Source of the DNA: a virus
Lineage: Duplodnaviria; Caudoviricetes
DNA: 64,000 nt
Reading direction: 5' to 3' (one strand)
Virus record (IMG/VR): IMGVR_UViG_3300005937_000001
Location: 23,425-87,424 of that record
Shown here: positions 26,757-43,864 of the stretch, piece after piece
How positions within the stretch are numbered: position 1 is the stretch's first letter
Layout: each line of letters opens with the position of its first letter
Made by a program: the position numbers and the translations under genes
Notes under the pieces: generated by a model
Seen by the model: the letters and a program-made list of their open reading frames with translations, nothing else
Database searches by the model: none
What the model was told of the DNA's origin: nothing

Positions 26757-28709
26757 ATGCAAGGCGCGACCAGGGCAGCGCTCGTATTTGAAGACACCAA
26801 CATCACCAACGTCGGCATCAAGACTACGATGCACACGCGTACCATTGAAACTCGTCACGGCACCTTCACCGTTTTCGACGAGGATGAGCTGGTCGGGCTC
26901 TCGCTCGTTACCTACGGCGAGTACAGCGAGGGCGAGGTTGAGGTCTTTAGAAAGGTTCTAAGGTCTGGCGATGTGGCGATCGACGTCGGCGCCAACATCG
27001 GCGCGCTTACGGTGCCGATGGCCAAGCTGGTCGGTGAGCAGGGCAAGGTTTGGGCTTTCGAAGCCAGCGACGCCAACCTCAAGCTCCTCTACAAGAACAT
27101 CGAGCAGAATAACCTAAGCAAGGTTGAAGTTCTCCCATTTGCAGCCAGTGACAAGAGTGGCTTTCTAAAGGTCGACAAGCAATCAGCCCTGCACGCCTAT
27201 AGCCGTCGCGATATCAACGAAGGCGAGTTCGAGGTCTCATGCATGACCATTGACGAGCTGAAGCTCGCCAAGGTCAAGCTGATCAAGATCGATGTCGACG
27301 GCCACGAGCTGCAAGTGCTCAACGGTGCAGTCGAAACCATCAAGCGCTGCCGGCCGATCATCTACATCGAGAACGAGATCGCGGAGAAGCGCGAGGCCCT
27401 AGTCGCCTGGTTCATCGATCACGGCTACCGCCTGTACTGGCACCGGCCCTACCTCTTCAACATCGACAACTGGCGCGATGACAAGAAGAACATCTTCGGG
27501 GCACTGGTCTCGATCATGAACGTCTGCATCCCCGATGAAGAGGGCTACGAGGTACTGGCGCTCGAAGAGGTCAGCGACTATCGCAACGATGATCGCATGT
27601 TCGATCGCGAGTGCGAGCGCTATCTTCGCTATGTCAAGCGCGATCCTGGCGACCTGCAATCGCGCTGGATGGCAGCGCACTACACCAACCTGATGCAGCG
27701 TCGACGCGAGGCCTGGGAGCTGGTCGAGGACAATCTCGCGCGCGATCCCGAGCACGTGCCCACGCGCGCACTATCCGCGTTGATGCAGCTGCAGGATGGC
27801 AACTACGGTCGTGAAGGTTGGGCAGGCTACGAGATCAGGCACCGGCAGCCCAACCGCCATCAGTTCGGCGGCGATCGTAACTTCGGCCCGCGCATCAAGC
27901 GTTGGGACGGCGAGAAGACCGACAAGCCGCTGCTGATCTGGAGCGAGCAGGGCTTCGGCGACAACATTATGTTTGCCCGCTTCTTCAAGCACGTGCTTAA
28001 GCGCGCGCCTAACGCCATCTTGGAGTGCCGGCCCGAGCTGTACGAGCTGTTCGAGTATTCTGGCGTCGCTCCGATCGAGTGGCGCAACAATTATTCCCGC
28101 CCCCATCTCTTTCGCCTTGGCCGCACGCTGCCGCGTGTTGAGCTGCAACTCCCCCTCCCTTCCACCGCGTGGGCGCTCGGCGCCGATGACAACATGATCC
28201 GCACCGGCCCGTATCTCGACGTCGACGGGACGCTGGTCGACAACTGGCGCGGTCACGGCAACATCCGGCTCGGCCAGACGCCGGAGGGTCCGCTGCATGG
28301 TGCGCGCATCGGCCTGTGCCACAAGGGATCGGCCACCTCCGAGCGCCCCTACACCCGTGACATCCCCAAAGAGCTGCTGATGCCGCTGGTCCGAAAATTC
28401 GGACCAGTGTTTCCGCTCGACCAGGTGGGACAGTTCGAGAGCTTCGCCATGACCGCGGCGGCGATCAAGGCGCTCGATCTGGTGATCACCGTCGACACCT
28501 CGATCGCGCACCTCGCCGGCGCGCTCGGCGTGCCGACCTGGCTGCTGCTGAGCTTCGATCCCGACTTCCGCTGGGGGCTCAAAGGCAATCGCACGCTCTG
28601 GTATCCGAGCGTGAAAATCTTTCGCCAGCCAAAATTCCGCGACTGGCAGAGCGTGGTCGACGAGGTGATGGCAGCGCTCGATGGCCCTCCAGACTTTTCC
28701 TCTTCCTAA
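26757..28709 (+). CDS. FkbM-family methyltransferase + TPR + GT9-like glycosyltransferase fusion
   Basis: IDVGANIG..T..MA...G..G.VWAFE and IKIDVDGHE (FkbM); W.GE......LIW.EQGFGD.IMFARF and LDLVITVDTSIAHLAGALG.PTW.LL...D.RW (GT9-like). Confidence 0.85.
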   Translation: MQGATRAALVFEDTNITNVGIKTTMHTRTIETRHGTFTVFDEDELVGLSLVTYGEYSEGEVEVFRKVLRSGDVAIDVGANIGALTVPMAKLVGEQGKVWAFEASDANLKLLYKNIEQNNLSKVEVLPFAASDKSGFLKVDKQSALHAYSRRDINEGEFEVSCMTIDELKLAKVKLIKIDVDGHELQVLNGAVETIKRCRPIIYIENEIAEKREALVAWFIDHGYRLYWHRPYLFNIDNWRDDKKNIFGALVSIMNVCIPDEEGYEVLALEEVSDYRNDDRMFDRECERYLRYVKRDPGDLQSRWMAAHYTNLMQRRREAWELVEDNLARDPEHVPTRALSALMQLQDGNYGREGWAGYEIRHRQPNRHQFGGDRNFGPRIKRWDGEKTDKPLLIWSEQGFGDNIMFARFFKHVLKRAPNAILECRPELYELFEYSGVAPIEWRNNYSRPHLFRLGRTLPRVELQLPLPSTAWALGADDNMIRTGPYLDVDGTLVDNWRGHGNIRLGQTPEGPLHGARIGLCHKGSATSERPYTRDIPKELLMPLVRKFGPVFPLDQVGQFESFAMTAAAIKALDLVITVDTSIAHLAGALGVPTWLLLSFDPDFRWGLKGNRTLWYPSVKIFRQPKFRDWQSVVDEVMAALDGPPDFSSS

Positions 28710-31700
28710 ACCACTGACAGTTGGTTCACCGGTCCTCGGGTCGGTGGCCATTTTACCGCGCCGGCTCTACACCGGCCCGCTCACCGTCGGTCGTCCCGTC
28801 ATCAAGATCGCCGATCTGTTCGGTGAGCCCGTCGATCTCACCGTCGGCAGTCCCATCATCGAGGATGCGCCGCTCTATCCGACGTTTCCCTGGTTCAACG
28901 GCCAGGTCGAAATTCTGAACGACTGGAGCCGACGCGATCCCGAAGTCTGGCCGCTTAACTGCCTGAAGTACGATCCCGAAGACGGTAGCGAGTGCAAAGA
29001 GGCGTTGTTCAGCAACTTCAACGCCAAGCTGATGCTGGAGTGCGACGGCGAAAGCTTGATCGGCCGTACCGTCCCAGGCCGCGGCGTCGCCAAGAAAATT
29101 CCGTTGATGCCGCCGCTCGCGTTCATCGATGGTCAGCTGCAGATCGAAGGGCCCCTCGGCGGCTTCGGTGAGACCGAAGACCCACTCATCGTCGAGGATG
29201 AAGTTCTCAAGCTCAAGATCGATGAACCGCTGGAGATCATCAACGGCAAGCTGACGGTCGAGCTGCCGCCTGGCCAGCCGCCCATCCTCGCAATTCGCGT
29301 TCTCACTTCGACCGGCGAGTTCATCCCCACGCCAGGCATGAGCTGCAGCATCGTCGAGATGGTCGGTGCAGGCGGCGGAGCTGCCGGCCTTTCTGGCGGC
29401 GCCGGCGGCTACAGCTGGTCGCCTGGTGGCGGCAGCGGATCGTACAGTCGATCGCTCCTCACCAAGGAGCAGATCGGCAGCTCAATTTCGATAGTCGTCG
29501 GACTTGGTGGAAATGGCGGCGGTGCTAATCAACCTGGCTCGAACGGCGGTCTTTCAAGCTTCGGCTCGTTGGTCATCGCCAATGGCGGAAAGGGCGCCAC
29601 GATATGGCAAGGTGGTCTCGGCGGTGATCCTGGCACCGGCGACTTCACCTCTGCAGGCAACGCCGGCGGTGGCTACAGCGGCATCAATGGAGCTGCAGTT
29701 GAAAATGGCTTTGGCGGCGCCAGCTTCTTCGGCGGCTCGACGCCAGGCCAGTATTGGGACGCGATACGCAACGGCTTGCCTGGTGCCAAGTATGGCGCGG
29801 GTGGAGCGGGTGCTAGTAACGCAGCGCAAACCGCAGGATTGTCAGGAGGCCGCGGCGCCGATGGCGTCATCGTGGTCACAGAGTACGCAGCTCCACGCGG
29901 CACTAAAGGCGACGTTGGGCCTGCAGGTCCGCAAGGCATACAGGGGCCGCAAGGCGTTCAAGGTCCCATCGGCAGCACCGGCCCGCAGGGGCCGCAGGGC
30001 GCCGTGGGTCTGCAGGGGCCGCAGGGGCCGATAGGCTTCACTGGAAACGCTGGCCCCGTTGGCCCCAAGGGCGACGTTGGCCCGCAAGGCGTCCAGGGTA
30101 TTCAAGGCCTCACTGGTCAGACTGGACCCCAGGGTGTCAAAGGGGACAAAGGCGTTCAGGGCGACACCGGTTCGCAAGGTCCGCAAGGTAACGTTGGGCC
30201 GCAGGGTCCGCTCGGCTTGACCGGCCCAATGGGGCCAGTCGGTGCGACGGGTCCGCAAGGTCCAATCGGCAACACTGGCCCGCAAGGCCCGCAGGGCACC
30301 GGCCTCACCATCCAAGGCACGGTGCCGACCTCAGCTAATCTGCCGACAGGGCTCACCACTGCCGACGCCGGCGACGGCTACATCACCGCTGACACCGGCC
30401 ACATGTGGGTGTGGGATGGCGACAGTTGGACCGATGCCGGCAACGTCACAGGTCCTGAAGGTCCGCAGGGTCCCGTAGGTCCGCAAGGTCCGCAAGGCAT
30501 TCAAGGCATCGAGGGCGACGTAGGTCCGCAAGGTCCGCAAGGTATCCAAGGCGTGCAGGGCCCAATCGGCAACATCGGCCCGCAAGGCGTGCAAGGTCCA
30601 ATCGGATTGACCGGCCCGCAAGGTCCAGTCGGCTCGACCGGCACCGGCGTCACGATGAAGGGTTCGGTCGCCACGTCGTTTGATCTGCCGGTCACCGCTG
30701 TTCAAGGCGACGCCTACATCGTACAGGCCGACGACAGCTTGTGGATTTACAGCGGCTCGCAATGGGTGAACGGCGGTTCGATCCAGGGCCCGCAAGGCAT
30801 CCAAGGCACGCAAGGTATCCAGGGCGTACAGGGCCCGAAAGGCGATCAGGGTGATCAAGGCATTGCGGGACCGATCGGCGACATTGGACCAGAGGGACCG
30901 ATCGGCAACACTGGCGCGCAAGGTCCGCAGGGCGTCAAGGGTGATACTGGTGACACCGGCCCGCAGGGCATCCAAGGCCCTATCGGCAACACCGGCCCGC
31001 AGGGCGTCAAGGGCGACACCGGTGACACCGGCCTGCAGGGCATCCAAGGCATTCAAGGTCCAATCGGCAACACCGGCCCGCAGGGAGAGCAGGGCGTCAA
31101 AGGTGATACTGGCGACATCGGCCCGCAGGGTATCCAAGGCGATCAAGGGCCAATCGGTGTGACGGGGCCAGAGGGTCCAATCGGCCCGCAAGGCGTGCAA
31201 GGCATTCAGGGCGTCGTCGGCCCGATCGGCTTGACGGGTCCGCAAGGCACCAACGCCTACACCGCGCTCGCTGCCGGCTTCACCGTCCCGCCGATAGGGC
31301 AAACCGTTTCCGTCATGCTCACCGATGCGAGCTGGGTCACTGTTGGTCAGATGATCTGGGTGCAGGACGCTGGCGTCGGCACCGACACCGCGGGCGCGTT
31401 CAAGGTCACTGCCAAAGTTGGTAACACCATCACGCTGCTCAACATCGATCTTGGCGGACCTGGTGGCGTACCCGACGCGCCGCTCACAGGCACCCTGTAC
31501 GCGCGCAGGAACGGCACTTGGGTTGCTATCAACAGTTTCCCCGAGGCACCGCTCGACGGTGCACAGTACGCGAGAAAGTCAGCGAGCTGGCAGATTGTCG
31601 CGACGCTGCCCGAGGCACCGCAGAACGGTCTCCCGTTCGTGCGCAAGGACGGCGCCTGGGCTGCTACGATAGTCGACGTTCCGACTGACAATAAATTTTA

Positions 31701-32079
31701 CTTCCGTAAAGACGGCGCGTGGATCGAGCAGAAGGTGCCGTTCGCATTTCCGATCGCCGGCCGACCCGTTGCGAATATGCGGATCAACGTGCCGATGGCG
31801 ATCGCGATCATCATCCCTTCTGGTCTCACTGGATCAATTGGCTACGGCGGCACTGCAGCGACAGCGTCGACGCAGTTCGTTCTCAATAAAGTCACCATGG
31901 GAGGATCGATAACGCAGCTCGGCACCGTCACCGCGCCCGCTGGCTCTAGCGGCCCATTCACGTTCGCAGGCGCAGGCGGACCACTCGCAGCGGGTGAGAT
32001 GCTGCAGATCGCAGCGCCGGCCACGCCGGACAACACGCTCGCCAATCTCGGCATAACAATCCTGGCGACGAGGGCGTGA
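28681..32079 (+). CDS. Collagen-like fibre A (Gly-rich domain, long Gly-X-Y shaft, X-type half-domain, tip domain)
   Basis: 1132 aa; GxPxxG repeats at the N-terminus, Gly-rich domain, ~450 aa of Gly-X-Y with two knobs, DAP..G..YAR..G.W repeats. Confidence 0.8.
29899..31248 (+). repeat. Collagen Gly-X-Y coding repeat (GPQG-rich) with two globular interruptions
   Basis: Continuous GGN-NNN-NNN periodicity, e.g. ggcccgcaaggc units. Confidence 0.9.
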
Positions 32080-32894
32080 TGCCGCAAATTTTTCTCTTCA
32101 CTGATGGTACTTCTACATACGTTCGGTACTGGTCTGATCCTGGCGACTGGAATCCAGACGACAACACGGTCGAGTGTCTTGGCGCCGGCGGCAGAGGCGC
32201 GGCGCAGATAGCCGCCCCTCAGGACAACAGTTGGGCTGGCGGAGGTTCGGGTGGCGGTGCTTACGCCAAGGGCGTCAATATCAACCCAGCTTTCCCTGTT
32301 CCCTATGTCGTGCAGCCGCAGTCATTAGTCTACTCACCTTCTACCCTCTATCACACCGTCTTCGGTTCTACTGCGTACTACTTTCAAGACCCGCGTCCTG
32401 GCGTCGTGCAGGCGGAGTGTGGCTCTGCTGGAATAGGCGGCAACCCTCAAACGGCTCCTGGCGGTCAGTGGAAATACCCAACGGGATATGCTGGAGGATC
32501 AGGTGGAGGTGGTTGGGCGCAGCTCGGTGGTGCGCCTTACGGCGGTGGTGGCGGCGGTGCAGCTGGACCGCACGGCGCCGGTGGCAATGGCACGGCCGCC
32601 AATGCCAGCACGCTTGGTACGCCTGGCTACGGTGACGCTGGCTACACTGCCGCACCTGGGCAAGGCGGAGCTGGCGTCAACGGCACGCAGTGGGGTTCAT
32701 GTGGCTGCGGCTCTGCCACCTGGGGCGGCTGGCCGGAGTACGGGCCGCAGAACGGCGGCAACTACGGCGCCGGCGCCGGTGGTGCGACTGGCATGCTCAC
32801 TGGTGCTCGATACCAAGCGGCCGGCAGTCCTGGCCTCATCGTCATCACCTATACGCCGCGCGTGTCGAACGAAATCGTGATGGTCATAGTCTGA
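32079..32894 (+). CDS. Gly-rich fibre tip partner B
   Basis: TGATG coupled; W..P.DWNP.DNTVE..GAG..G and GGGGAAGP.G.G motifs; paralog of 35268..36107. Confidence 0.7.
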   Translation: MPQIFLFTDGTSTYVRYWSDPGDWNPDDNTVECLGAGGRGAAQIAAPQDNSWAGGGSGGGAYAKGVNINPAFPVPYVVQPQSLVYSPSTLYHTVFGSTAYYFQDPRPGVVQAECGSAGIGGNPQTAPGGQWKYPTGYAGGSGGGGWAQLGGAPYGGGGGGAAGPHGAGGNGTAANASTLGTPGYGDAGYTAAPGQGGAGVNGTQWGSCGCGSATWGGWPEYGPQNGGNYGAGAGGATGMLTGARYQAAGSPGLIVITYTPRVSNEIVMVIV

Positions 32895-34522
32895 TGGCGG
32901 AAATCAACCCGCTCGCAGACCCTGGCAAAAACGTAAGCAGCGGTGGCTGGGTCTCTCCGGCTGGCGAATCTGGATTACAGGGCCCGCAAGGCACGCAGGG
33001 CACGCAGGGCACGCAGGGCATTCAAGGCGTGCAAGGCGACACCGGCGCGCAGGGTCCGCAAGGCGTCAAGGGCGACACCGGCGACACCGGCCCGCAGGGT
33101 GTCAAAGGCGACACCGGCAACACTGGCGCGCAAGGTCCGCAGGGCATTCAGGGGCCCGTCGGCGCCGGTCTGCAAATTCAAGGGCACGTCGCAGACGCTG
33201 CAAGCCTGCCGACGGGACTGACAACCGCCGACGCTGGCAAGGCATGGGTCACCGACGACACCGGCCACACCTGGACGTGGAGCGGCACAGCTTGGGTCGA
33301 TGTCGGTGCGCTCGAAGGCGCGCCTGGTGCGGATGGCCCTCCTGGTCCTGCAGGGGCTGATGGGCCTGAAGGTCCTGGCTATCGCGCCACCAGCACGACG
33401 TCGGACACGATCTCGCTCGGCCCGCATACCTTTACCGTTCCAGCCGGCCTCGCGTACACGCCAGGCGCCCGTGTACGCGTGGCCTCGCAGAGCGATCCCG
33501 AGCAGTGGATGGAGGGTGAGTGCACCGCTTACAGCGGCACCTCGCTCACCATCAACGTCGACGACACCAGCGCGATTGCCGATCCCGCTGGCAGTTATGT
33601 CTCCAAGGCCGGCGACACGATGACCGGCGATCTAACCGTCAATAAGAACACACCGACTTTAATTCTCAACAAGACCGCAAGCGATCAGAATGCGATGCTC
33701 TACTCGCAAGTTAATGGAAGCTCGCGCTGGGCTTTCGTTATCGGCGACAACGATCCAGAGACGGGTGGCAACGTTGGTACCAACTTTGCCATCGGCAGTT
33801 ACGCAGACAATGGTTCTTATCTACGCACGCCACTGCGGTTTGATCGAGCAACTGGACTTGGTGTTGTATCCGGCAATCCAGTTGCTGCACTCGGCATAGC
33901 GACCAAGCAGTATGTCGACACTCATCCGCTATCGACGCATACCGTGCTCAACACAGTTGGCTCGGGCACGTACACCACACCAGCAAATTGCAGACGTCTC
34001 AAAGTCAGGCTGCTCGGCGGCGGCGCGGGTGGCAGCAGCTTCAACGTAAACGGACAGTCCGGCGGCAACACCATATTCGGCCCAGCAACGGCAGGTGGAG
34101 GGCAGGGCACTGGCGGTTACTACCTCTCTGGCGCTGGCGGCGTTGTGACTGGTTGCGATTTTGCTGTCCGAGGTGCTTCAGCATCTGCCATCGCGAGCGC
34201 TAACCTATCGCAAGATCGTGGTGGTGGGACGGGCGCATCTGGTCCCTTTGGCGGTGCCGGTGCTGGGAGCTGGGCGACTACTGCAGCTGGAGCCGCTTCA
34301 GCGAATAGCGGCAGCGGTGGTGGCGGCGGTGGTTCGAACGGCAGTAGCAATCCTGGTGCAGGCGGCGCCGCCGGCGGCTACGGTGAATTGGTCATCGATA
34401 ATCCTGCTGCATCTTACTCCTATACTGTTGGTGCAGGCGGACTTGGTGCAACAGCTGGCACTAACTCAGGCGCCGGTGGTGCCGGTGGTTCAGGGGTCAT
34501 TCTTATCGAGGCAATCTTCTGA
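32894..34522 (+). CDS. Collagen-like fibre C
   Basis: ATG at 32894 (TGATG); Gly-X-Y, one knob, [13 protein letters not shown] fibre motif, Gly-rich C-terminal domain. Confidence 0.8.
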
Positions 34523-35268
34523 TGACGTTCACAGACTGGAGCGTAAATATCGCAGGATTGCGCGGGCGTGGCGCTGGACCAACTGGACCCAAAGGTGACA
34601 CCGGCGCGCAAGGATCACAAGGCGCGCAAGGAATAAGTGGACCGCAAGGCTCCAACGCGTACACCACGACGACCGCGCCCTTCACTGTTCCGCCTGTTGG
34701 TCAGACTGTCAGCGTTACGCTCGCCGATGCGAGCTGGATCACCATCGGCCAGATCGTGTGGGTGCAGACCGCGGGCGGTTCGGGCAACGCCGGCGCGCTG
34801 CGCGTCACCGCTAAGGCCGGCAACACCGTCACGCTGCTCAACCAAGAAGGTGGACCCGCGGGCATTCCTGATGCTGTCGATAGCAAGACGTACGTGAGAA
34901 GATACGGCGCGTGGGTCGAGCTGACGATCCCCGTTGTATTCCCATTCGCAGGCAAACCTCTCGCCAGTGCCAAGGTCGTTGTACCAATGGCGATTGGACT
35001 AATTATTCCTGCAAATCTTACGGGCTCGACGGGCTACACCACCGTCAACTCAACAGGTTCTCCAGTGTTCACAGTCAATAAATTGGCTACCGACGGCACC
35101 GCGACTACAATTGGATCGATCACGTTTTCGGCGGGAGTACGTGCCGCCGCAGCTGCCGGTGCAGGTGGCTCGCTCGCTATCGGCGAAGCACTTCAGCTTG
35201 TTGCGCCGGCGTCGCCAGACGCGACACTTGCTGATCTTGGCATTTCTATTCTTGCAGCGAGGGCGTGA
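34522..35268 (+). CDS. Short fibre D (paralog of the C-terminal part of fibre A)
   Basis: Begins MTFTDW; short collagen; shares FTVPPVGQTV...TLLN and ...TLADLGISILAARA with A. Confidence 0.75.
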   Translation: MTFTDWSVNIAGLRGRGAGPTGPKGDTGAQGSQGAQGISGPQGSNAYTTTTAPFTVPPVGQTVSVTLADASWITIGQIVWVQTAGGSGNAGALRVTAKAGNTVTLLNQEGGPAGIPDAVDSKTYVRRYGAWVELTIPVVFPFAGKPLASAKVVVPMAIGLIIPANLTGSTGYTTVNSTGSPVFTVNKLATDGTATTIGSITFSAGVRAAAAAGAGGSLAIGEALQLVAPASPDATLADLGISILAARA

Positions 35269-36107
35269 TGCCACGCGCATATCTCACTACGCCTGGCAAT
35301 AACGCTGTTCAGTACTGGCCCCGCCCCGACGATTGGAACCCAAACGACAACACAGTCGAGGTGATTGGCGCAGGATTTCTAGGTGGCATTCAGGGTTTCG
35401 CACCGCGAATGGCACCGCACGAAGCGGGCGCGCCAGCTCCACGGGCAATCACCTACGGTGGAGGCGGTGGCGGCGGAGGTGCTTACGCCAAGGGCGTTAA
35501 TCTCGATCCAACGTTTCCTGTGCCTTGTATCATCGCCTCAGGAAGCTCTTATGGATCGGCTGGATATCATTCTGGCTTCAACATCACGACCCCTACTCCG
35601 ACGTACGCTCCTGGCATGGTCGTGGCGCGCAATGGCGACCCTGCTGGATCGTATTCTGGCCTCGGTGGTCAAGGCGGCCCCGCTTTTTATCCAACCGGTT
35701 TCAAGGGTGGCAACGGCGGCAACGCACCAAATCAAAGTGATGGCAAGGGTGCAGGTGGCGGCGGTGCTGGCGGTCCTAATGGTGCAGGCAGCAACGGCGG
35801 CAACTCAACATCTGCTGCTGGAGGGACTGGCGGAGCCGCTGATGGCGGGACTGTTGCAGGTAGCGCAGCAAGAGAAGACGGCCGCAGCGGGCAAGAGTGG
35901 GATATGTCGCATGGTTGCGGCGCAGGTGGCGGTGGGCTCACCGGCGGCGTTCCTGTTCAAGGACTCACTGGTCTGGGCGGTAAGTATGGTGGTGGCGGTG
36001 GAGGTTCTACGAGTGGCACAAACCAACCTGGCTCTGGCGGCGACGCTCTCATCATTATCACCTGGACATCGCTACCTCCTGTTCCGCGAGCGCTCATCCT
36101 GACCTAA
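35268..36107 (+). CDS. Gly-rich fibre tip partner E
   Basis: Paralog of B (YW..P.DWNP.DNTVEV.GAG; GGAYAKGVN..P.FPVP). Confidence 0.7.
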   Translation: MPRAYLTTPGNNAVQYWPRPDDWNPNDNTVEVIGAGFLGGIQGFAPRMAPHEAGAPAPRAITYGGGGGGGGAYAKGVNLDPTFPVPCIIASGSSYGSAGYHSGFNITTPTPTYAPGMVVARNGDPAGSYSGLGGQGGPAFYPTGFKGGNGGNAPNQSDGKGAGGGGAGGPNGAGSNGGNSTSAAGGTGGAADGGTVAGSAAREDGRSGQEWDMSHGCGAGGGGLTGGVPVQGLTGLGGKYGGGGGGSTSGTNQPGSGGDALIIITWTSLPPVPRALILT

Positions 36108-36109
36108 CC

Positions 36110-37225
36110 ATGTCTCTTCCTGGTCAAGCAGTCAGCACTGGTGCAGAAGTCTCTCCCGCGGGCGACGGCGGCCTGCAGGGTGTGCAAGGCGTGCAAGGAC
36201 CAGTTGGGCCCGCAAGCACGGTGCCAGGCCCACAGGGCATTCAGGGAATACAAGGCGTGCCTGGCCCTGGTTACGCATCGACGAGCCCGACCTCGAATGC
36301 CATCGGCACCGGCTTAAAAACTTTCACCACTCAGCTCGGGCTTGCATACACCGCGGGCGCGCGTGCGCGCATCTCCTCACGCGGCACGCCGACGAAGTGG
36401 ATGGAAGGCATCGTCAACGCCTACGATCCAGCAAGCGGCGTGCTGCAGCTCAACGTCGACATGACCAGCGACACTGCCGCAGCTGCAGCCACTCCCACGC
36501 CGATTGTGTTTCGCAATTATCTCGGCGGGCTCGAGTTGGCGCCTGCTGCAACTACGATCACGATCGCGACCGGTTGCGCCTGCTCCGATGATGGCTCGAC
36601 GATGATGACGCTGTCAGCGGCGATCACCAAGGTGATCAACGCTGCTTGGTCTGCGGGCAATGGCAATGGTGGTCTCGACACCGGTGCGATCGCTAACAAC
36701 ACCTGGTACAACGTCTTTTTGATCGGCAACGTGAGCAGCGGCGCAGTCGACGTGCTCTTCGTCGTCGGAGCATTAGGCTCAATACCGGCGCCGACTATGC
36801 CGACGGGCTACACCGTCAAACGACGCATTGGATCGTTCGCTACAGGTTCGACTGGGCAGGTCACACCGTTCACGCAACTCGGCGATGATTTTCTTTGGGT
36901 AACGACGCCCATAAACTACAGCAACGCCACGATGGTTCAGGCGCAGACCTCGTACTATCTCAGCGTTCCACCAGGCCTCAAAGTGATCGCTTTCTTCTCG
37001 ATCCACGTGAATGTGGGCACTGCCAGCTGGATGCTTGTTCAATCGCCAGACGCGACTAATGCGCCCAACGACCCTCCAGGGAATAACAACATGTACACTC
37101 TTCCCCAGAGCAACGATTTTCGCATTCGCACCAACACCAATCAGCAGATCAACATTGGGTGCGGTGCGACGAGCGGCGGCCTCTATCTCCTCACCAGAGG
37201 CTGGAACGATAGTCGGGGCAAATGA
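36110..37225 (+). CDS. Short fibre F
   Basis: Begins with a PG..VS.G..VSPAG..GLQG peptide like C; short collagen; fibre-type C-terminal domain (GGLDTG.IANNTWY.V.LI). Confidence 0.75.
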   Translation: MSLPGQAVSTGAEVSPAGDGGLQGVQGVQGPVGPASTVPGPQGIQGIQGVPGPGYASTSPTSNAIGTGLKTFTTQLGLAYTAGARARISSRGTPTKWMEGIVNAYDPASGVLQLNVDMTSDTAAAAATPTPIVFRNYLGGLELAPAATTITIATGCACSDDGSTMMTLSAAITKVINAAWSAGNGNGGLDTGAIANNTWYNVFLIGNVSSGAVDVLFVVGALGSIPAPTMPTGYTVKRRIGSFATGSTGQVTPFTQLGDDFLWVTTPINYSNATMVQAQTSYYLSVPPGLKVIAFFSIHVNVGTASWMLVQSPDATNAPNDPPGNNNMYTLPQSNDFRIRTNTNQQINIGCGATSGGLYLLTRGWNDSRGK

Positions 37226-38256
37226 CCTTCACCGATTGGGACATCGACGCTGTAGGCGTGCAGGGACTGCGAGGGCCGCGAGGATCGACGGCAACCTCAA
37301 CTCCGAGCGCTGACGCTATCAACCTATCACGTGCAGGACGTGACGGCTTGCTGTGGACGCCGGCCACGCTCAACAACCTGATCAATGGCAAGGTGATCTT
37401 CACTCCCCCGTACTTCCGCATCAAGACACTGTTGGGAAACGATCCATCTGCAGCGGACCCAGTGTTCTGCGTCATGCCGGATGCGACGACGATCATCAAG
37501 ATTACAACGGCCAGCGTGCTCACGATGCTCCCTGGCGTCACTTTTGGGGGGCAGGCATCTTCCGCCGCCATCCGGTTATGGCTCTACTTGTTTGCCGACG
37601 GTCGGCTTGGTGTTCGCTGCAACATGGCGGCGAACAAGATACTCGGGCCACCACCTGATCGGATGACTACCGCGAATTTTGCTGCGCCTGGTGCGGCCGG
37701 TGTGACTTATGGAAGCTCAAGCGGTCAGATGCTCTATCGGCCGATCGCTTACGTGGACTTTGACTCCGCTCCAGTGTCGGGCGGTGATTGGTACGGATCA
37801 CCCAGCCGCATCACGATGGTAGGGCCGAACACGCCAATGCCTGGTGCGCGCTTGCAGGAGAGCGGCCAGGCGCAACAGAGCCAAATTACTTGCAACACCG
37901 GCGGCTGGACACAAACAACGATCTACAACTACATCCAACCAAGCTGCGTGCAACATGCCGTACGTGTGAGCTGTAACTCAGATGGGCATCTCTCGGTCCC
38001 AGCTCAGACCGAGTATTGCGTTGCGCAAGTGTTCAGGAACGACGCCACTGCGCTTGCTCAGGTCAATTACTCGTACACATGGACAGCGACTGCTAGCTCC
38101 TCGTTCATCATCTACGCTGGCGGCTTCATCGATTATCCATACACGATCGCCAACACGCTCTACCGCCTTTACGTGCACCTTTCGGTCAACGGCGGCAACA
38201 CGCTGTATATTCCGCACGGCGGAGGCTGGATGCAGACCACCGAGCTGATGACATGA
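37222..38256 (+). CDS. Fibre tip protein G
   Basis: Begins MTFTDW; ATGA coupled; S.DA.NLSR.G.D.L.WTP motif; paralog of H. Confidence 0.7.
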   Translation: MTFTDWDIDAVGVQGLRGPRGSTATSTPSADAINLSRAGRDGLLWTPATLNNLINGKVIFTPPYFRIKTLLGNDPSAADPVFCVMPDATTIIKITTASVLTMLPGVTFGGQASSAAIRLWLYLFADGRLGVRCNMAANKILGPPPDRMTTANFAAPGAAGVTYGSSSGQMLYRPIAYVDFDSAPVSGGDWYGSPSRITMVGPNTPMPGARLQESGQAQQSQITCNTGGWTQTTIYNYIQPSCVQHAVRVSCNSDGHLSVPAQTEYCVAQVFRNDATALAQVNYSYTWTATASSSFIIYAGGFIDYPYTIANTLYRLYVHLSVNGGNTLYIPHGGGWMQTTELMT

Positions 38257-39302
38257 CGTTCACCGATTGGGACATCAACGTTGCGGGTCAGCTCGGGCAG
38301 ACGGGACCGACTGGGCCAGCTGGAACAATAGGGTTGAGCACCGACGCGAACAATCTCTCGCGTTTAGGAAGCGACAGTCTGATCTGGACGCCGGCGACGG
38401 TGACCAACAACTTGATCAATGGCAGGGTGACGGCGACGGTCGCTGCCAACACGACCACCTTCTGGATCAAGAACACCTTGTCCGGTGGCGATCCATCGCC
38501 GAGCTATCCAGTCTACTGCGTAATGCCGGATGCTACTGTCGTGCGGCTCACGGCGGCAACATCGATCACAATTCCGGCCGGCTTCACCTTTGCTAACCAA
38601 GCGACTTCATGGATTCGCATCTGGGTCTATTTGCTAGCAACAGGCGTGCTCGCGGTGCGCTGCTGCATCACCGGAGGCAAGCTAGCAGGGCCGGCACCCG
38701 ATCGTATGTCGGTTCTCGCCTTCAGTGGCGCCGGCGTCTTCGGCAACAACTACGCAGCCGCGCCGGCGACCGCGATCCCGTATCGTCCAATCGCGTACCT
38801 GGACTATGACCTCTCGCCGCAAACAAGCGGCAACTGGATCAATACACCGACCCGCATCACGCAGGTCGGGCCTAATACGTTGATGCCTGGTGCGATGATC
38901 CAAGAGCTGGGGCAAGCGCACCAGAGCCAAGTGACTTGCCAAACTGGTGGTTGGACGCAGACGAGCACCTGGTGCTACATCCAACCGAGCTTCGTGCAGC
39001 ACGCAGTGCGGGTCGAGTGCAACGCCGACATGCTGCTCAACTGCGCTGCCTCTAACGAATACATCATGTCGCAGGTTTGGAGGAATGACGCGACCCCGAT
39101 CGGACAGATCAACTACGCGTACGGTTGGGCGCAGACTGTAGTGTTTTCATTCATTGCGCATGCTGGCTGCCTCCTCGATTATCCAGGCACGACAGCAAAC
39201 ACGCTCTACCGTTTGTACTTCCACATCTACGTCAGTGGCTCGAACATCGCGTACTGCCCACATGGTGGCGCGTGGATGCAGCTAGCGGAGCTGATGACCT
39301 AA
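38253..39302 (+). CDS. Fibre tip protein H (paralog of G)
   Basis: Begins MTFTDW; colinear with G over its full length, ending PHGG.WMQ..ELMT. Confidence 0.7.
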   Translation: MTFTDWDINVAGQLGQTGPTGPAGTIGLSTDANNLSRLGSDSLIWTPATVTNNLINGRVTATVAANTTTFWIKNTLSGGDPSPSYPVYCVMPDATVVRLTAATSITIPAGFTFANQATSWIRIWVYLLATGVLAVRCCITGGKLAGPAPDRMSVLAFSGAGVFGNNYAAAPATAIPYRPIAYLDYDLSPQTSGNWINTPTRITQVGPNTLMPGAMIQELGQAHQSQVTCQTGGWTQTSTWCYIQPSFVQHAVRVECNADMLLNCAASNEYIMSQVWRNDATPIGQINYAYGWAQTVVFSFIAHAGCLLDYPGTTANTLYRLYFHIYVSGSNIAYCPHGGAWMQLAELMT

Positions 39303-39607: not shown

Positions 39608-39864
39608 GCTGGAAACGCGAAGGATACTGCTGCAAATGTGGACAGTGCTGTCGTGGCGCGATTGACGGATTACCTGCTCAGGACGACGGCGCTTGCCCTT
39701 ATCTGGCAGCGACGAACGCTGCGGGCGAACGTCTCTGCCGTATCCATGACACCGTCGACACCTACTGGGCGCGCGGCTGCAACGTCTGGCCAAGCGTCCC
39801 GCATCACATCGAAGCCTACGACCGTTGCACCTTTACGTTCGTCTGGGTAGACGATGCCGACTAA
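39604..39864 (+). CDS. YkgJ-like cysteine-cluster (CxxCxxCC) protein
   Basis: CCKCGQCC...CPYL...C.IH...C..WP pattern. Confidence 0.65.
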   Translation: MSWKREGYCCKCGQCCRGAIDGLPAQDDGACPYLAATNAAGERLCRIHDTVDTYWARGCNVWPSVPHHIEAYDRCTFTFVWVDDAD

Positions 39865-42800
39865 GACTTTCTATCTGCTCAACACCGCTGCTGTTGCACC
39901 CAACTACTGGGGTAACATGCAGGATGGCGGCAGCGCGCCTGCAGCGGCTTCGTGCACCTACGGTTGGACGGTTGCCAAGACCGTGGTCACATCCGGCACC
40001 TTCCGGGCGCGCCTGGGTGCAAACGCGCTCGCGACCGTCGGCGGCACTGTCACGAGCGGGATCACCAATACGCTCGCTCCACGCCCAGGCACTGCCGCGA
40101 CCAACACGGCGGCTGGCGACAGCTTCGTGGTCGGTCCACTCAACGGCTCATTTGCGGCTGGCAACTGGACTTTCAACTGGCAATTCCGCACTGCCGCCGC
40201 GACCACGGTCGGCTACCTGCGGATGCGGGTGTGGAAGGGCTCCGACCCGAGTGGCGCAGGCGCCACTGATCTGTCCCCCAGCGGCGTCCCCATCGATGGC
40301 GCCAGCGTCACCATGTCGTCGATCACGACGAGCTACAACAGCTCAATGACGTGGAACGCTCCCGCCATCACGCTCAACAACGAGTACCTGTTCTTCGAGG
40401 TCGAGTGGCGCGAGACGACAGCCGGCACTTCGAACCAGAGCGGCGCCACTTTCCGCCAGGGCGAAAGCTCGATTGTCACTACCAACTTCACCTTTGCGGC
40501 GATCAGCTTTCCGGCAGCCACCAACCTTGCAGTGTCGCAGCCTGTCGTCGGTGGAGGTCTTGGACCTCTTTGGCAACCGATAGAGCTTGGCACCAACCTG
40601 CAAAGCTGGCTCGACGCCTCGGACGCCAGTACGGTTACGGTCACCGGCAGCGGTGTTTCTCAGTGGCGTGACAAGTCCTCGTTTGCCCGCCACGGCAACC
40701 AGACCACTGATGCCAACCGCCCGCCCTACCTTGGCGGTAATGTTATCAAATTTCAGTCATTGGACGCGCTCACCTTCACAGGTAATCCATCCGGTTCCTA
40801 CGACTGTTGCTTCGCTGGACTGCAAGCCGCTGGCGCAACAAACAAGACGATCTTTTTCAACACCTCGGCGGAGATTCCTCTCCGCATCACATCGACAGGT
40901 CAGGTCGGCGTCGTCGATGGTGGAGTCTTTTCCCAAGCCGGCACCGCCACCTGGGAGCCAGACAACGAAGCCCTCTGCTACTTCCGGCTAGCCAACGGCA
41001 TCCCGACTTACGTGGCGATGAACGGTGGCGGATGGCACGAAGCCGCCGGTATGCCCACGCGGCAGATTCTCTCCATCGGCCGCACCGACGCCTCCGAAGG
41101 CTTCGGCGATCTCTACGAGATCGTGCTGCTGCCCTACGAGTCTTCTGATGCTGACAGGCAAAAGCTCGAAGGCTACATGGCCTGGAAATGGGGCTTGGCT
41201 CAGTATCTGCTCGACGACGCCCACCCCTATAAGTCAGCTGCGCCAAGGGTCGGTGGTTATCCCTACCCGACACTCACCGAAATAGGTCCCGAGGTTCTGA
41301 CAGCGAGCGATCTGAGCGTTGCAGCTCCGGTTCTCGGCGCACCTAATCTTGCGGAACTGCTTCCGTCCTCGGACTTGACGGCTATCAGCTTCGCCATCAG
41401 CGCACTCGTCATCAGCACCTCGACCCTTGGTCAAGCTCACAAGCTCCAGGGCAACGCGGCGGCTGCTGGTGCTCCGTCATTCATCACTGCCACGATCAAG
41501 CAAGCGCACGCCTTCCAAGCGCAGCCCGTCACTGCAGGCCTGCCAGTCATCGGCAGTTCTGCTGTCTCGCTCACCGTCAACGTGACGGTTAGTAGCCTCG
41601 CGGTGCCTTCGCCGAGCTTCGGCACGCCGGCGATGGTGCCAATCATTCTGCTCTCGCCCATTGCTTACGCCACGCCACCTCCGGCGCTCGTGGCTGCGAC
41701 GCTCGGGCAGAAGCACGTACTCGCTGCGCCCGCTTTTACCCCAACGTCACCGCCCGCACTCGCTGCCGCGAGCATTACTCAGAAGCACGTCCTGACTGCG
41801 TCCGCTATTGCGGTCGGATCACCAAGCCTTGGCGTTGGTACGGCTAGCGTAGCTTCGCTAGTCCTCACTGCCGTTCCGGTTGCCGCGAGCAATCCTGCAT
41901 TCACGATCCCAGCGCTGCAGCAGAAACATGTGCTGGCAGGAGCGTCAGCGGCCGCGGGATCGCCTGCTCTTGGCGCCGGCATCCTTGGCCTCACCGCCAA
42001 CAGCTTTGCGAGCAGCTCGCCCACGCTCACGGCACCGAGCCTCGGGCAGAGGCACGCATTCACTGCGACCGCGCTTGCTTTAGCTGCGCCGTCTTTGGCT
42101 GCTACGACCCTCGGTCAATCTGGCGTCTTGGCGTGTATCCCCATCGCCATCACGCCCCCGACGCTTTCCGCCGGCGTGCTCGCGCAGAAGCACGTGCTGG
42201 CGGCGAACTCGTTGGCGATTTCTGCGCCGGCGCCGGCAGCAGCCACGCTGAAGCAAGTGCATGCACTTACGACCGCGAGCCTGGCGGTCACCGCGCCGTC
42301 CTTGGGGGCCTGTGCACTCGGACAATCCCACGTCCTTGGCACGCTCTCCCTTGCAGCGGGTGCACCAGTGCTCGCGGCCGCAGTGCTCGGCCAAGCCGGC
42401 GTAATGGCGGCGCTACCGATCACCGTCAGCTCCCCCGTCATTGGCTCTGCAAACTTCAGCCAGAAGCATAGCGCGGTTGCCTCTTCCTTTGCGACTTCCG
42501 CGCCCTCGCTGAGTAGCCCGTCACTCGGCAAGGTGCTTTCGGTTGGAGCGCTCGCCGTCGGTGCCCCAGCCTTAGGCGCTCCTAGCTTGGCCAAGGCACT
42601 GACGGCGGCGCCTCTTGCGGCAGGTGCTCCTGCTCTTGGCACTCCCTCCCTGACTGCTGTGGTCGCATGTGTGGCGGACGCATTGGCGACCACGACACCG
42701 GCAATCGGTACACCAGCGCTCAAGCAAGTCCACAAGCTTGTTGCGGTTATCACCATCGGCCCGCCCGTCCTATCGGTCCCAACGCTCGGCATCATCGGTG

Positions 42801-43864
42801 TGGTGATTGCCGTACCGGCGATAGCGGGTGCTCCGGTCCTCGGGGCCCCAGCACTCGGGCAGCGACACGTCCTCTCTGCCGCTGGGGCCTCGACGGGGGC
42901 GCCGACGATCGCCGCGCCCGCATGCGCGATAAGGGTCGGACTTACCGCGCAGCCGCTGGCGGTTGCGCCGGTTCTTGGCGCACCAAAACTTGAGCAGATA
43001 CACCAACTCACGGCCGCGAACCTGGCAGGATCGGCGCCGGCGATCGGCACCGCTTTCTTCGGTCAGGCCGGCGTGATGGCGGCGGTCCCCTTGTGGATAG
43101 GACCGCTAATCGTCTCTATCCCCAACCTTAGACAGCGCCACCGTTTCACGGAAAACGTGCTCGCCGCGGGCGCCCCCGTGCTTGGGGCGGCGATCTTCCT
43201 GCCGCGGCTGCTGTCGGCGCCCCTGTATGCAGGACACCCCGAGATCGGGACACCGGCCCTCGGGCAACAGCACGCTCTGCAGCCAGTATCCCTGGCCGAC
43301 CGCGCCCCGAGCCTTGGGGCGGCTTTTTTCAGCCAGGCCGGTATCTTGGCCGCGGTCCCGCTGGAAACGGCGCCAGCGGCCTTCTCTGCCCCAGCAATCG
43401 GGCAACGATACAAACTTAGCACCCCTATTCTGCAGATTGGGGGTCCCGAAATAGGGGCACCCCAATACCAGGGCGTCAACCGGCTCCCGAGGGCCTACAA
43501 TCTCTTTGCAGGGCGTTTTAAGCCCCTCCCCGCTGTCCTGGGGCAGGTCCACCCGCTAACGCCGCAGAATGCCTCCGCTGGCCGTCCTACGACCCTTCTA
43601 GCGCCATCCCTGGCAGAGGTGCGGCCCCTGGACCCGCTCGGGGTCGAGGTCGGACCCCCGTCCCTGGACGCGCCGGCGTGCGGGTTGTGGCAGCCGCGGC
43701 CTGGCGATGTGGTCGACGTCATCGGGTGCCCGCACCGCCCGACCATCGAAGGCCGGCGCGGTGGCGCCACCATCACGGCGAAGTCGCAGCGCGCTGCGGA
43801 TATCACCGGCCAGCGCAACGGTGGCGGACGCATCATCGGTCGCAAGCAGCGTGTGACCATCTAA
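39854..43864 (+). CDS. Large virion protein: beta-sandwich + LamG/ConA-like domain + long GxPxLG repeats
   Basis: WLDASD..T....GVSQW.DKS....RP and G.LYEI......DRQKLEGY.AWKWG domain; Ala/Pro-rich repeats with recurring Q-x-H-x-L and A-G-A-P-x-L-G. Confidence 0.7.
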   Translation: MPTKTFYLLNTAAVAPNYWGNMQDGGSAPAAASCTYGWTVAKTVVTSGTFRARLGANALATVGGTVTSGITNTLAPRPGTAATNTAAGDSFVVGPLNGSFAAGNWTFNWQFRTAAATTVGYLRMRVWKGSDPSGAGATDLSPSGVPIDGASVTMSSITTSYNSSMTWNAPAITLNNEYLFFEVEWRETTAGTSNQSGATFRQGESSIVTTNFTFAAISFPAATNLAVSQPVVGGGLGPLWQPIELGTNLQSWLDASDASTVTVTGSGVSQWRDKSSFARHGNQTTDANRPPYLGGNVIKFQSLDALTFTGNPSGSYDCCFAGLQAAGATNKTIFFNTSAEIPLRITSTGQVGVVDGGVFSQAGTATWEPDNEALCYFRLANGIPTYVAMNGGGWHEAAGMPTRQILSIGRTDASEGFGDLYEIVLLPYESSDADRQKLEGYMAWKWGLAQYLLDDAHPYKSAAPRVGGYPYPTLTEIGPEVLTASDLSVAAPVLGAPNLAELLPSSDLTAISFAISALVISTSTLGQAHKLQGNAAAAGAPSFITATIKQAHAFQAQPVTAGLPVIGSSAVSLTVNVTVSSLAVPSPSFGTPAMVPIILLSPIAYATPPPALVAATLGQKHVLAAPAFTPTSPPALAAASITQKHVLTASAIAVGSPSLGVGTASVASLVLTAVPVAASNPAFTIPALQQKHVLAGASAAAGSPALGAGILGLTANSFASSSPTLTAPSLGQRHAFTATALALAAPSLAATTLGQSGVLACIPIAITPPTLSAGVLAQKHVLAANSLAISAPAPAAATLKQVHALTTASLAVTAPSLGACALGQSHVLGTLSLAAGAPVLAAAVLGQAGVMAALPITVSSPVIGSANFSQKHSAVASSFATSAPSLSSPSLGKVLSVGALAVGAPALGAPSLAKALTAAPLAAGAPALGTPSLTAVVACVADALATTTPAIGTPALKQVHKLVAVITIGPPVLSVPTLGIIGVVIAVPAIAGAPVLGAPALGQRHVLSAAGASTGAPTIAAPACAIRVGLTAQPLAVAPVLGAPKLEQIHQLTAANLAGSAPAIGTAFFGQAGVMAAVPLWIGPLIVSIPNLRQRHRFTENVLAAGAPVLGAAIFLPRLLSAPLYAGHPEIGTPALGQQHALQPVSLADRAPSLGAAFFSQAGILAAVPLETAPAAFSAPAIGQRYKLSTPILQIGGPEIGAPQYQGVNRLPRAYNLFAGRFKPLPAVLGQVHPLTPQNASAGRPTTLLAPSLAEVRPLDPLGVEVGPPSLDAPACGLWQPRPGDVVDVIGCPHRPTIEGRRGGATITAKSQRAADITGQRNGGGRIIGRKQRVTI

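Follow-up and report, generated by a model that had tools for sequence, protein, structure and literature searches.

The array described here is carried by the 87-kb genome of an uncultured soil myophage and was analyzed within a window of 64,000 nucleotides, to which all coordinates below refer. It is preceded by genes for sheath, baseplate, and head-closure proteins and consists of genes A to H, all encoded on the plus strand. Gene A (28681..32079) encodes the putative chain-initial fibre protein (1132 aa), composed of a long N-terminal region that includes a glycine-rich domain, an extended collagen tract that contains two intact inter-collagen domains, a domain of X type (X-large), and a C-terminal tip. 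No other protein of the array has a large non-collagen part at its N-terminus. Gene B (32076..32894) encodes a stand-alone glycine-rich protein which is paralogous (40% identity) to the likewise glycine-rich product of gene E (35265..36107). The product of C (32894..34522) starts with a short X-type peptide followed by collagen, one intact inter-collagen domain, a domain of Y type (Y-large), and a tip with a glycine-rich domain at its end, and that of D (34522..35268) combines a different short peptide, denoted W, with a short collagen segment, X-large, and an A-like tip. In F (36110..37225), an X-type peptide, collagen, and Y-large are followed by a predicted disordered Ala/Pro linker and a mobile tip module. 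Finally, G (37222..38256) and its paralogue H (38253..39302; 55% identity) are candidate chain terminators that begin with W peptides (37225-37257 and 38256-38288, respectively) and lack X- and Y-type domains; in G, the peptide is followed by three to four collagen triplets and a tip. We refer to the X-large and Y-large domains as sockets and to the N-terminal peptides as plugs. Thus, C, D, F, G, and H all start with conserved peptides of 11-21 residues that lead directly into collagen or tip, and D, G, and H have no N-terminal domain besides the W plug. Each X socket gene is separated from its plug gene by one of the genes for glycine-rich proteins, B or E.

The gene junctions from A to H are TGATG or ATGA overlaps or else a 2-nt gap. 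The gene coordinates and the translational coupling given in a preliminary description of this DNA proved exact. The array belongs to the collagen-like phage tail fibres: the collagen profile PF01391 matches A (E = 7.9e-37) and C (E = 2.7e-7), and many tail-fibre PHROGs match the array. The same description had each protein ending in a distinct tip, which is incorrect for two pairs: the tips of A and D are homologous, with 40% identity over the whole C-terminal part, and G and H are 55% identical. Relatives of D in four IMG/VR loci (L005-L008) have only the C-terminal tip in common with it, and the F-type tip is found on many unrelated anchors, including that of Bradyrhizobium phage ppBjS10J-1, where it is the sole part in common. 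A comparison of F with the second domain of Mtd yielded 16.7 bits, below the cut-off of 24.6; the possibility that an Mtd-like F tip is the target of a diversity-generating retroelement was rejected because there is no reverse transcriptase (RVT_1) match in the whole 87-kb genome. For G, the Atlas search provided no usable lead.

Intact and split X and Y domains

X and Y are domains of ~80 residues that usually connect one collagen segment to the next in the same chain; neither type has a Pfam or NCBIfam model. The Y module comprises a ~65-residue core (GY.ATS ... GLAY ... WMEG ... NVD) and a sixth strand, GSGT.xDWxIxxAG, and the X module a core (NAYT..FTVPP.GQTV...ASW...GN..TLLN) followed by the segment PG..V.SG..VS.GG leading into collagen. 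Among the 378 Y instances in the best 150 homologues, ~350 carry GSGT(F)xDWxIxxAG 9-13 residues after NVD, and intact X domains run on into PGxxVxSGxxVSxGG and then collagen. The contiguous forms given in the preliminary description, in which intact homologues continue directly into VSPxG- and TFxDW-type segments, are therefore correct.

In the window, none of the four socket copies is complete: all stop after the fifth strand and run via a linker into the tip. X-large of A (31252..31443) ends after TLLN, and the tip follows where the usual PG..V.SG..VS.GG segment is missing; the copy in D (34654..34842) is 67% identical. Y-large of C (33377..33571) represents the five-strand part of the six-strand domain, being cut after NVDDTS, and is ~46% identical to that of F (36269..36469); both retain all conserved core residues of intact domains. 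The trailing X segment, absent in cis from A and D, is found at the N-termini of C (32921..32983, residues 10-30), where it is homologous to the segment after intact X domains, and F (36119..36181, residues 4-24). Likewise, the sixth Y strand, absent in cis from C and F, is found at the N-termini of D, G, and H; the W plug of D (34525..34557, residues 2-12) corresponds to strand six of intact Y domains and scores 29.3, the canonical median being 29.7. When all 87 kb of the genome were scanned in six frames, X-large was located only in A and D and Y-large only in C and F, with three occurrences of the TFTDW-type motif, all at the starts of D, G, and H, and two of the VSP(A/G)G-type motif, both at the starts of C and F, confirming the socket positions and the placement of the motifs at gene starts reported previously.

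The X core of A and D matches homologues with E values down to 1e-46, and phrog_31840 matches F (residues 23-164) and D (residues 2-85) at adjoining profile positions. Unbroken modules, such as those of P0004 (seven Y copies), P0262 (seven X-like copies), and phrog_31840, are the same domains by sequence (E down to 1e-67). In fibres with unbroken modules, however, the last segment is present in cis and the chain continues straight into collagen, whereas in the window array a tip and a gene boundary precede that segment. Judged by sequence, the nodes of C and F are thus split members of the Y module, and those of A and D are split members of the X module.

Recurrence of the split form

The split arrangement is not restricted to this genome. 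In de-duplicated IMG/VR loci, 24 of 28 truncated Y domains have an ORF starting with a W plug within 60 nt of the stop codon, compared to a background of 41 W-plug starts among 14,053 ORF segments; for one further domain, the W-plug gene comes after a gene for a 98-aa protein, and three (in L015, L018, and the second in L033) have no plug gene downstream. Truncated X domains are likewise followed by an X-plug gene in ~14 of 17 cases, the pattern being seen in L012, L097-L101, L103, and L106-L108, with several, as in L104 and L105, having no plug gene downstream. An open barrel can therefore apparently exist unplugged. Some loci form chains of four to five genes in which sockets and plugs correspond 1:1: there are three of each in L010 and four of each in L016, the last protein having a plug and no socket, and both of these chains of four to five proteins use the Y type alone. 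In L026, L033, and L067, the upstream protein stops directly after Y-large and ends without a tip, indicating that the Y module also serves as a plain joint. The plugs differ slightly by position in the chain, and orthologous positions across loci keep their variant.

Megablast of 20 kb against deposited phages gave no match, nor did tblastn of Y-large against 50,697 deposited phage genomes at 1e-6; with the cut-off relaxed to E values up to 1, a single marginal match was obtained, to Aphanizomenon phage CL131 (E = 0.6). No cultured model phage was found among the deposited phage genomes. No RNA sequencing runs carrying the sequence are listed, and the one DNA run that contains it in full is probably from the source sample. 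Genome contigs contain 12 loci with Y domains, almost all intact, as in Hoeflea sp. YIM 152468; the split form is present only in a Xanthobacteraceae MAG.

One rival explanation of the array dispenses with any completion in trans. Mobile tip cassettes, each consisting of a linker, tip, stop codon, ribosome-binding site, and ATG, might have been inserted by homology at a conserved loop before the last X or Y strand, so that the plugs are gene remnants and the downstream proteins attach otherwise or act as independent alternative fibres. The tips are clearly mobile, the F-type tip being a case in point; the A-B-C and D-E-F segments do resemble a tandem cassette duplication; and some open sockets have no downstream plug gene. 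Yet the downstream proteins have only a plug and a few collagen triplets at their N-termini, and the 87-kb genome shows no alternative socket-like or adaptor site to which they might attach. Moreover, all ORFs are intact in dozens of split loci, proteins that otherwise differ greatly share the conserved plug, and the long chains contain one plug for each socket. We thus regard recombination scars without trans-completion as unlikely, and a history of insertion is in any case compatible with trans-completion.

Covalent joining, in which recoding (read-through, frameshift, or long-range bypass) or splicing would restore an intact X or Y domain within one chain, appears extremely improbable. In L026/L027, socket and plug are in the same frame, one TGA and four codons apart, so that read-through could yield a fused product there. 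In the window, by contrast, 0.75-1.5 kb of tip sequence separates socket from plug, with a whole gene more for the X type; the frames of socket and plug differ; and translation of each plug gene can begin at a start codon of its own, which overlaps or adjoins the stop codon of the gene before it. We know of no bypass of 0.75-1.5 kb in length.

Structure models and proposed assembly

The AlphaFold2 (AF2) model of an intact Y domain has six strands, with the W segment forming the sixth (pLDDT ~92). In the model of F, the residues past NVDMTS are disordered (pLDDT <50), the sixth strand is not formed in cis, most of the first strand is lost, and the core has a pLDDT of 65-90, compared to 88-95 in the intact domain; both predictions are for single chains, and only seven sequences cover the socket in the F alignment. 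The nearest solved folds to the intact Y model are small beta-barrels, with weak matches; Foldseek searches of the PDB with the intact Y and F models returned nothing at E <= 0.001. A complex of three copies of the C node with three of D(1-44) was modelled with a score of 0.49 (runs, 0.43, 0.49, and 0.51), against 0.15 for the best control. The runs agreed in at least 83% of contacts, with a partner pLDDT of at least 49. Of 80 solved complexes, 58 reached the pass mark for such models, as did 2 of 110 mismatched pairs; at scores of 0.60 or lower, just 7 of the 80 solved complexes passed, along with both passing mismatches. Joint modelling of C and D hence lends weak backing to strand completion. 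The previously proposed completion of each socket by the N-terminus of the next protein is supported by homology, by the AF2 fold of the intact Y domain, by the lack of a substitute strand in cis in F, and by the strongly recurrent order of socket, then plug, across many unrelated loci, and weakly by the direct C-D model.

Given that separate proteins are each cut before the last strand of a domain and that the next protein starts with this strand, the pieces most likely form a many-tipped fibre. We infer that the plugs of C, D, F, G, and H most likely complete upstream sockets, and that the array probably represents one multi-protein collagen-like tail fibre, with segments joined non-covalently at split beta-barrel nodes. 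Each array protein would trimerise by itself, and the N-terminal plug of the downstream trimer would insert into the open barrels of the upstream trimer, restoring the canonical node; the downstream collagen would then prolong the fibre, with the upstream tip hanging on its linker as a side branch. Attachment to the baseplate would fall to A, whose large N-terminal part has no equivalent in the other proteins. C and F, each with an X plug and a Y socket, and D, with a W plug and an X socket, would act as extenders, and G and H, having a plug only, as terminators competing for Y sockets, so that the resulting fibre might show up to ~5 receptor-binding tips. Several features count against this single fibre, namely, three W plugs (D, G, and H) for two Y sockets (C and F), the position of B and E between X sockets and plugs, and the unplugged sockets elsewhere. 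Strand completion also faces a geometric objection: the intact last strand returns to the trimer axis, and a split node must share that axis with the tip-bound upstream chain.

The suggestion that two alternating orthogonal socket types enforce the order of assembly is not supported. The L010 and L016 chains are built with a single joint type, and the types in the window allow cycles (C -> D -> C); type alone can therefore not fix the order. This bears on a further possibility, namely, that the joints are real and the order is not fixed, extenders and terminators competing to yield virions with mixed fibre length and tip content, for instance when G or H caps C early, when C-D units are repeated, or when F takes the place of C. 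C and F are indeed equivalent by type, D, G, and H all carry a W plug, the W plugs outnumber the Y sockets, and other loci chain several proteins through one joint type. On the other hand, the position-specific plug variants, kept at orthologous positions, could encode pair specificity, and tight translational coupling may favor pairing of neighbours; mixed fibres are accordingly conceivable, if on the whole not very likely. Somewhat doubtful is the more general reading of X and Y as portable, mutually orthogonal split-barrel connectors, with C or F and D alternating until G or H caps the chain and fibre length and tip content varying per virion. With such an open-ended assembly grammar, nature would have a non-covalent equivalent of the split-domain tags engineered for trimeric fibres, and the connectors could be reused to equip phage fibres with receptor-binding tips of choice.

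Known composite fibres and implications

The preferred reading, a single fibre of strand-completed segments, can be compared with several known systems. In chaperone-usher pili, a subunit with an incomplete beta fold receives the missing strand from the N-terminus of the next one, yielding non-covalent head-to-tail polymers that include terminator subunits; the pilins are monomeric Ig-like folds which lack the seventh strand and depend for their assembly on a periplasmic chaperone and an outer-membrane usher. The array proteins, in contrast, are presumably trimeric, collagen-like phage proteins of cytoplasmic origin with an unrelated six-strand barrel-like fold, and no chaperone or usher family was detected among the array and neighbouring proteins scanned. 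The likeness to pilus donor-strand complementation drawn in the preliminary description thus extends to the principle, and not to fold, chaperone, or usher, and is an analogy of mechanism only. The long tail fibre of T4 (gp34-gp35-gp36-gp37) is also composed of several separately encoded proteins, placed end to end in an unbranched fibre with a single tip; unlike the array, to which it has no homology, it contains no collagen, and no single domain recurs in split form at its joints.

Closer parallels come from the branched receptor-binding proteins of Klebsiella phages KP32, K11, and KP34, which feature a branching domain and a conserved N-terminal docking peptide (PMC13352976), with related branched cases in the tail-spike complexes of Ackermannviridae (PMC11414711) and LtfA/LtfB of T5-like phage DT57C (PMC4728585). 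As proposed for the array, the first protein of the KP32-type systems combines a virion anchor with a docking domain, the next consists of a short N-terminal peptide and a receptor-binding part, the genes are adjacent, and several tips share one attachment site; the KP32-type secondary protein needs the peptide to bind the domain in order to enter virions. C, D, F, G, and H similarly possess a docking-type peptide, lack an anchor domain, and are encoded by translationally coupled genes. However, the KP32-type docking domain is T4 gp10-like and has a complete fold, whereas the array node is an inter-collagen barrel without its own last strand, the peptide corresponding to that strand; searches of A, C, D, and F against Pfam, PHROGs, and NCBIfam found no T4 gp10-like branching domain. 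Fibres of the array type further differ in having nodes of two kinds, up to 4-5 proteins chained in series, and a collagen-like shaft. In the solved structure of BppU-BppA from Lactococcus phage Tuc2009, which is described as containing a composite titin-like domain (PMC4742702), a short beta segment of one adhesion-device protein completes the beta-sheet of a small domain in the other, as proposed for the array. There, a C-terminal hairpin of BppU acts as the donor and an Ig-like domain of an accessory protein as the acceptor; the joint is not formed from a domain that occurs unbroken in relatives, is not serial, involves no collagen, and has no sequence relation to the array. Docking peptides and trans completion of sheets are thus already known in phages; the present arrangement did not turn up in literature searches on strand complementation, donor strands, or strand insertion in tail fibres, and collagen fibres are unmentioned in the RBPseg atlas.

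If the proposed assembly is correct, many uncultured phages of soil and rhizosphere assemble adhesins with several tips from segments encoded by separate genes, following a rule that can be read from sequence: a barrel is cut before its last strand, and this strand opens the next gene. Fibre composition and likely multi-receptor host recognition would then be predictable from metagenomes, and strings of short "hypothetical" fibre genes without an anchor domain would be accounted for. The joints would also offer small natural connectors with which phages of laboratory strains could be engineered in modular fashion. In addition, the rule would fix frequent start-codon miscalls. Two such miscalls were encountered in this analysis.

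Organization of the fibre gene array

The record containing the fibre genes (87.4 kb, from IMG/VR, with an estimated completeness of 98%) originates from a rhizosphere metagenome and represents a myophage, with genes for tail sheath, baseplate wedge, head-closure and tail proteins located upstream of the array. We found no close cultured relative, the top match of the sheath protein being to a Microcystis phage (43% identity). The region 28681-39302 is occupied by eight genes of the same direction, A (28681-32079), B (32076-32894), C (32894-34522), D (34522-35268), E (35265-36107), F (36110-37225), G (37222-38256) and H (38253-39302), whose starts overlap or abut the stop codon of the gene before. 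Truncated inter-collagen domains of two types, referred to as sockets, were confirmed at exactly the coordinates of the preliminary description, namely, X-large in A (31252-31443) and D (34654-34842), with 67% identity, and Y-large in C (33377-33571) and F (36269-36469), with ~46% identity. Each socket type has a corresponding N-terminal peptide, or plug: C and F begin with PG..VS.G..VSPAG ahead of collagen, and D, G and H with MTFTDW.(I/V)...G, after which come a few collagen triplets, so that three W-type peptides correspond to two Y sockets. Apart from the plug, these five proteins have no N-terminal domain. A six-frame scan of the whole genome found the plug motifs and the X and Y domains confined to the array genes.

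Contrary to the preliminary description, the C-terminal receptor-binding parts, or tips, are not all distinct: A(832-1132) and D(19-248) share 40% identity over their complete C-terminal parts, and G and H share 55%. Together with the 40% identity of B and E, this paralogy makes A-B-C(head) and D-E-F(head) resemble the products of a tandem cassette duplication. B (32076-32894) and E (35265-36107), each placed between an X socket gene and a gene with an X-type peptide, are stand-alone glycine-rich proteins with no family match, which resemble glycine-rich domains in A (~residues 200-400) and the C-terminus of C; the upstream junctions of both read ...GCGAGGGCGTGATGCC... Between X-large and the tip of A lie four tandem repeats of ~23 residues (..P.AP.DG..Y.R..G.W..; 31468-31728), a region matched by Pfam Fibritin_C (E 3.6e-8), whereas D has a single copy. 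The same motif opens the tips that follow Y-large in a homologous protein (P0080), and in two comparison loci (L010, L016) it opens the tips behind the plug of the terminal S74-type proteins.

Intact relatives and predicted folds of the split domains

None of the Pfam, NCBIfam or named PHROG families covers X or Y. Both domains occur frequently in metagenomic fibre proteins: searching 1.84 billion cluster representatives with the Y part of F yielded 1,617 matches at E <= 0.001, and the matching proteins often carry several copies in tandem. Among the best 150 of these 1,617 proteins, ~350 of 378 Y instances continue, 9-13 residues past NVD, into GSGT(F)xDWxIxxAG and then into collagen or the next Y copy. 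Similarly, intact X continues from TLLN into NP.G....G..V..G..V..(A/S)G and collagen, so that the contiguous forms given in the preliminary description proved correct for both domains. In addition, F 23-164 and D 2-85 match adjoining positions of the phrog_31840 profile. Judging from these continuations and the profile placement, the N-terminal peptides of C and F are homologues of the last segment of intact X, and those of D, G and H of the last segment of intact Y. The split and its exact position are established, and all conserved core residues of the intact domains are kept in the split sockets.

An intact Y domain from another locus was modelled by AlphaFold2 (monomer, 23-row alignment) as a six-strand beta domain with a mean pLDDT of 81, in which the W segment forms strand six (pLDDT ~92). 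Foldseek detected only weak likeness of this model to small beta-barrels, for instance in V/A-ATPase subunits (the N-terminal crown domain) and in Klebsiella phage depolymerases. In the AlphaFold2 model of F (residues 21-371, monomer, 27 alignment rows, of which 7 cover the socket), no strand occupies the sixth-strand position, barrel strand one is largely lost, confidence in the core is lower than in the intact Y domain, and the Ala/Pro linker past NVDMTS falls below pLDDT 50. The hydrophobic stretch after this linker is part of the tip module, since it also accompanies that tip on anchors lacking a Y domain. Most ten-residue blocks of the F tip exceed pLDDT 90, although confidence dips at model residues 161-170 and 301-310. 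The missing sixth strand, disordered linker and weaker core in the model, combined with the kept core residues, argue that Y-large is unlikely to be a complete fold by itself.

We also modelled the C-D joint as a complex of three C nodes (each comprising collagen, Y-large and 30 tip residues) and three D(1-44) chains, using 8-row alignments for both proteins. The complex scored 0.49 (runs 0.43, 0.49 and 0.51), compared with 0.15 for the best of three controls; contact agreement between runs was at least 83% and partner pLDDT at least 49. Of 80 solved complexes, 58 reached the pass mark, as did 2 of 110 mismatched pairs; passing scores <= 0.60 were obtained for only 7 of the 80 solved complexes and for both passing mismatches. 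Thus, the complex model is compatible with a plug-socket joint and lends it weak support, but does not carry it.

The F-type tip (36470-37225; ..LPNYLGG.. to ..GW.D.RGK) is a mobile module that occurs on a wide variety of N-terminal anchors, one of which belongs to a cultured Bradyrhizobium phage (OP596615.1, protein WAX24466.1; L011), and its fold shows only weak likeness to the C-terminus of the Bdellovibrio Bd2133 fibre. A weak Mtd-like match in F was considered as a sign of a DGR, and this reading was rejected because the genome lacks a reverse transcriptase. The other fibre protein of the phage (12192-14051) carries, at residues ~85-165, an apparent Y-like barrel, divergent but unbroken, that includes a W strand in cis (...GGGVYAEWSIGVTG; plug score 14.2) and that the Y-core profile did not pick up.

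Recurrence of the socket-plug gene order

The strongest evidence for completion in trans is the recurrence of the socket-then-plug gene order in other loci. The first cases came from individual look-ups of Y homologues without the W strand: a socket gene whose stop codon is followed after 3 nt by a gene beginning MSFTDW (L009), a socket gene and a plug gene separated by a 98-aa gene (L013), and chains of four genes with three sockets and three plugs (L010) and of five genes with four of each (L016). In both chains, the first protein contains a large anchor region, all middle proteins consist of a plug at the start, a truncated Y and a tip, and the last one combines a plug with a Peptidase_S74-type tip, without a socket. 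Plug-gene starts were miscalled 50-70 codons late (L010 5081, L016 2164), at an internal MEG of the Y core or downstream of it; the real starts, straight after the preceding stop, encode the plug. Such calls will conceal the architecture in databases.

We then gathered 79 IMG/VR loci with the socket profile and scored them automatically, obtaining 131 intact and 35 truncated Y domains, the latter reduced to 28 once duplicates and one misclassification were removed. Twenty-four of the 28 are followed, <= 60 nt past the stop codon, by an ORF with a W plug at its start, and one more by a plug ORF after a small gene; by comparison, a plug-like motif occurs in the first 60 residues of 41 out of 14,053 ORF segments, true plugs included. 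Three truncated domains (in L015, L018 and the second in L033) have no plug gene downstream. In L018 (~7050-7075) and L033 (~9690-9719), the protein ends straight after the truncated Y, and the open barrels may represent a free fibre end or an acceptor for a partner encoded elsewhere. The X survey covered 13 loci and one case from L012: the plug gene comes immediately after the socket gene in L012, L097, L098, L099, L100, L101, L103 (twice), L106 (twice), L107 and L108, unlike in the array interrupted by B and E. This order is absent from L104 and L105. Bacterial genomes mostly carry the Y domain in intact form, with a split form present in a Xanthobacteraceae MAG.

Recombination scars would explain the origin of such an arrangement, but leave unexplained the intact, anchorless downstream proteins, the conserved plug and its one-to-one match with sockets. 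Covalent joining of the halves by recoding is implausible in the array, where they are in different frames and separated by an entire tip and, in the case of X, by an entire gene as well; this favours separate proteins, as proposed previously, over products of splicing or bypassing. Recoding might apply elsewhere. In L026/L027 (~7490-7570), only one in-frame TGA, four codons with a Shine-Dalgarno-like GAGGA, and an ATG separate socket from plug, with no tip, so that read-through of the stop codon could produce a fused intact domain beside two separate proteins. In L026, this GAGGA and the start codon occupy the position of the loop. The upstream proteins of L026, L033 and L067 stop straight after Y-large, without a tip, with a plug ORF beginning <= 15 nt from the stop, suggesting that the split module also works as a plain joint.

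Proposed assembly of a branched fibre

Collectively, homology, recurrence and the AlphaFold2 models of intact Y and of F support the core of the interpretation, namely, completion in trans and a branched multi-tip fibre, with predicted binding between plug and socket. Trimers would form separately, and the plug of a downstream trimer would complete the open barrels of the upstream one, so that the downstream collagen continues the shaft, whereas the upstream tip would be held sideways by its linker. A would anchor the entire fibre on the baseplate, and G and H would terminate it. Thr, Pro and Ser at residue 2 normally permit removal of the initiator Met; every plug protein seen has one of these residues, and Met removal would give the plug strand a clean start.

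By type, the grammar is A to C or F, then either to D, from which C or F can follow once more, or to a terminator, G or H. Therefore, contrary to the original suggestion, two socket types do not by themselves enforce the order A-C-D-F-G/H, and loci with one joint type chain equally well; a fixed order would have to arise through finer specificity of the pairs or through translational coupling of adjacent genes.

That a peptide or strand of one adhesion protein completes, or docks on, a domain of another is already known. Experiments have established branched receptor-binding complexes in Klebsiella podophages, held together by a conserved N-terminal peptide that docks on a branching domain (PMC13352976), similar complexes have been described for Ackermannviridae (PMC11414711) and DT57C (PMC4728585), and in the solved Tuc2009 tripod a BppU hairpin completes the BppA beta-sheet (PMC4742702). 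Literature searches returned no account of a split inter-collagen node with a tip at the cut and serial chaining. The array differs from those systems in its node, for which a canonical inter-collagen domain is cut at one fixed loop (hundreds of relatives have this domain unbroken), and in having two node types; in arrays of this kind, the tip inserted at the cut would create a branch rather than a simple joint, and up to 4-5 proteins are chained serially. The architecture occurs widely, can be recognized from sequence and lends itself to simple tests. Outside the chain, a 1336-aa protein (39854-43864) consists mostly of degenerate repeats around ..LGQ.H.L.. and has one PHROG match, phrog_10356 (virion structural protein).
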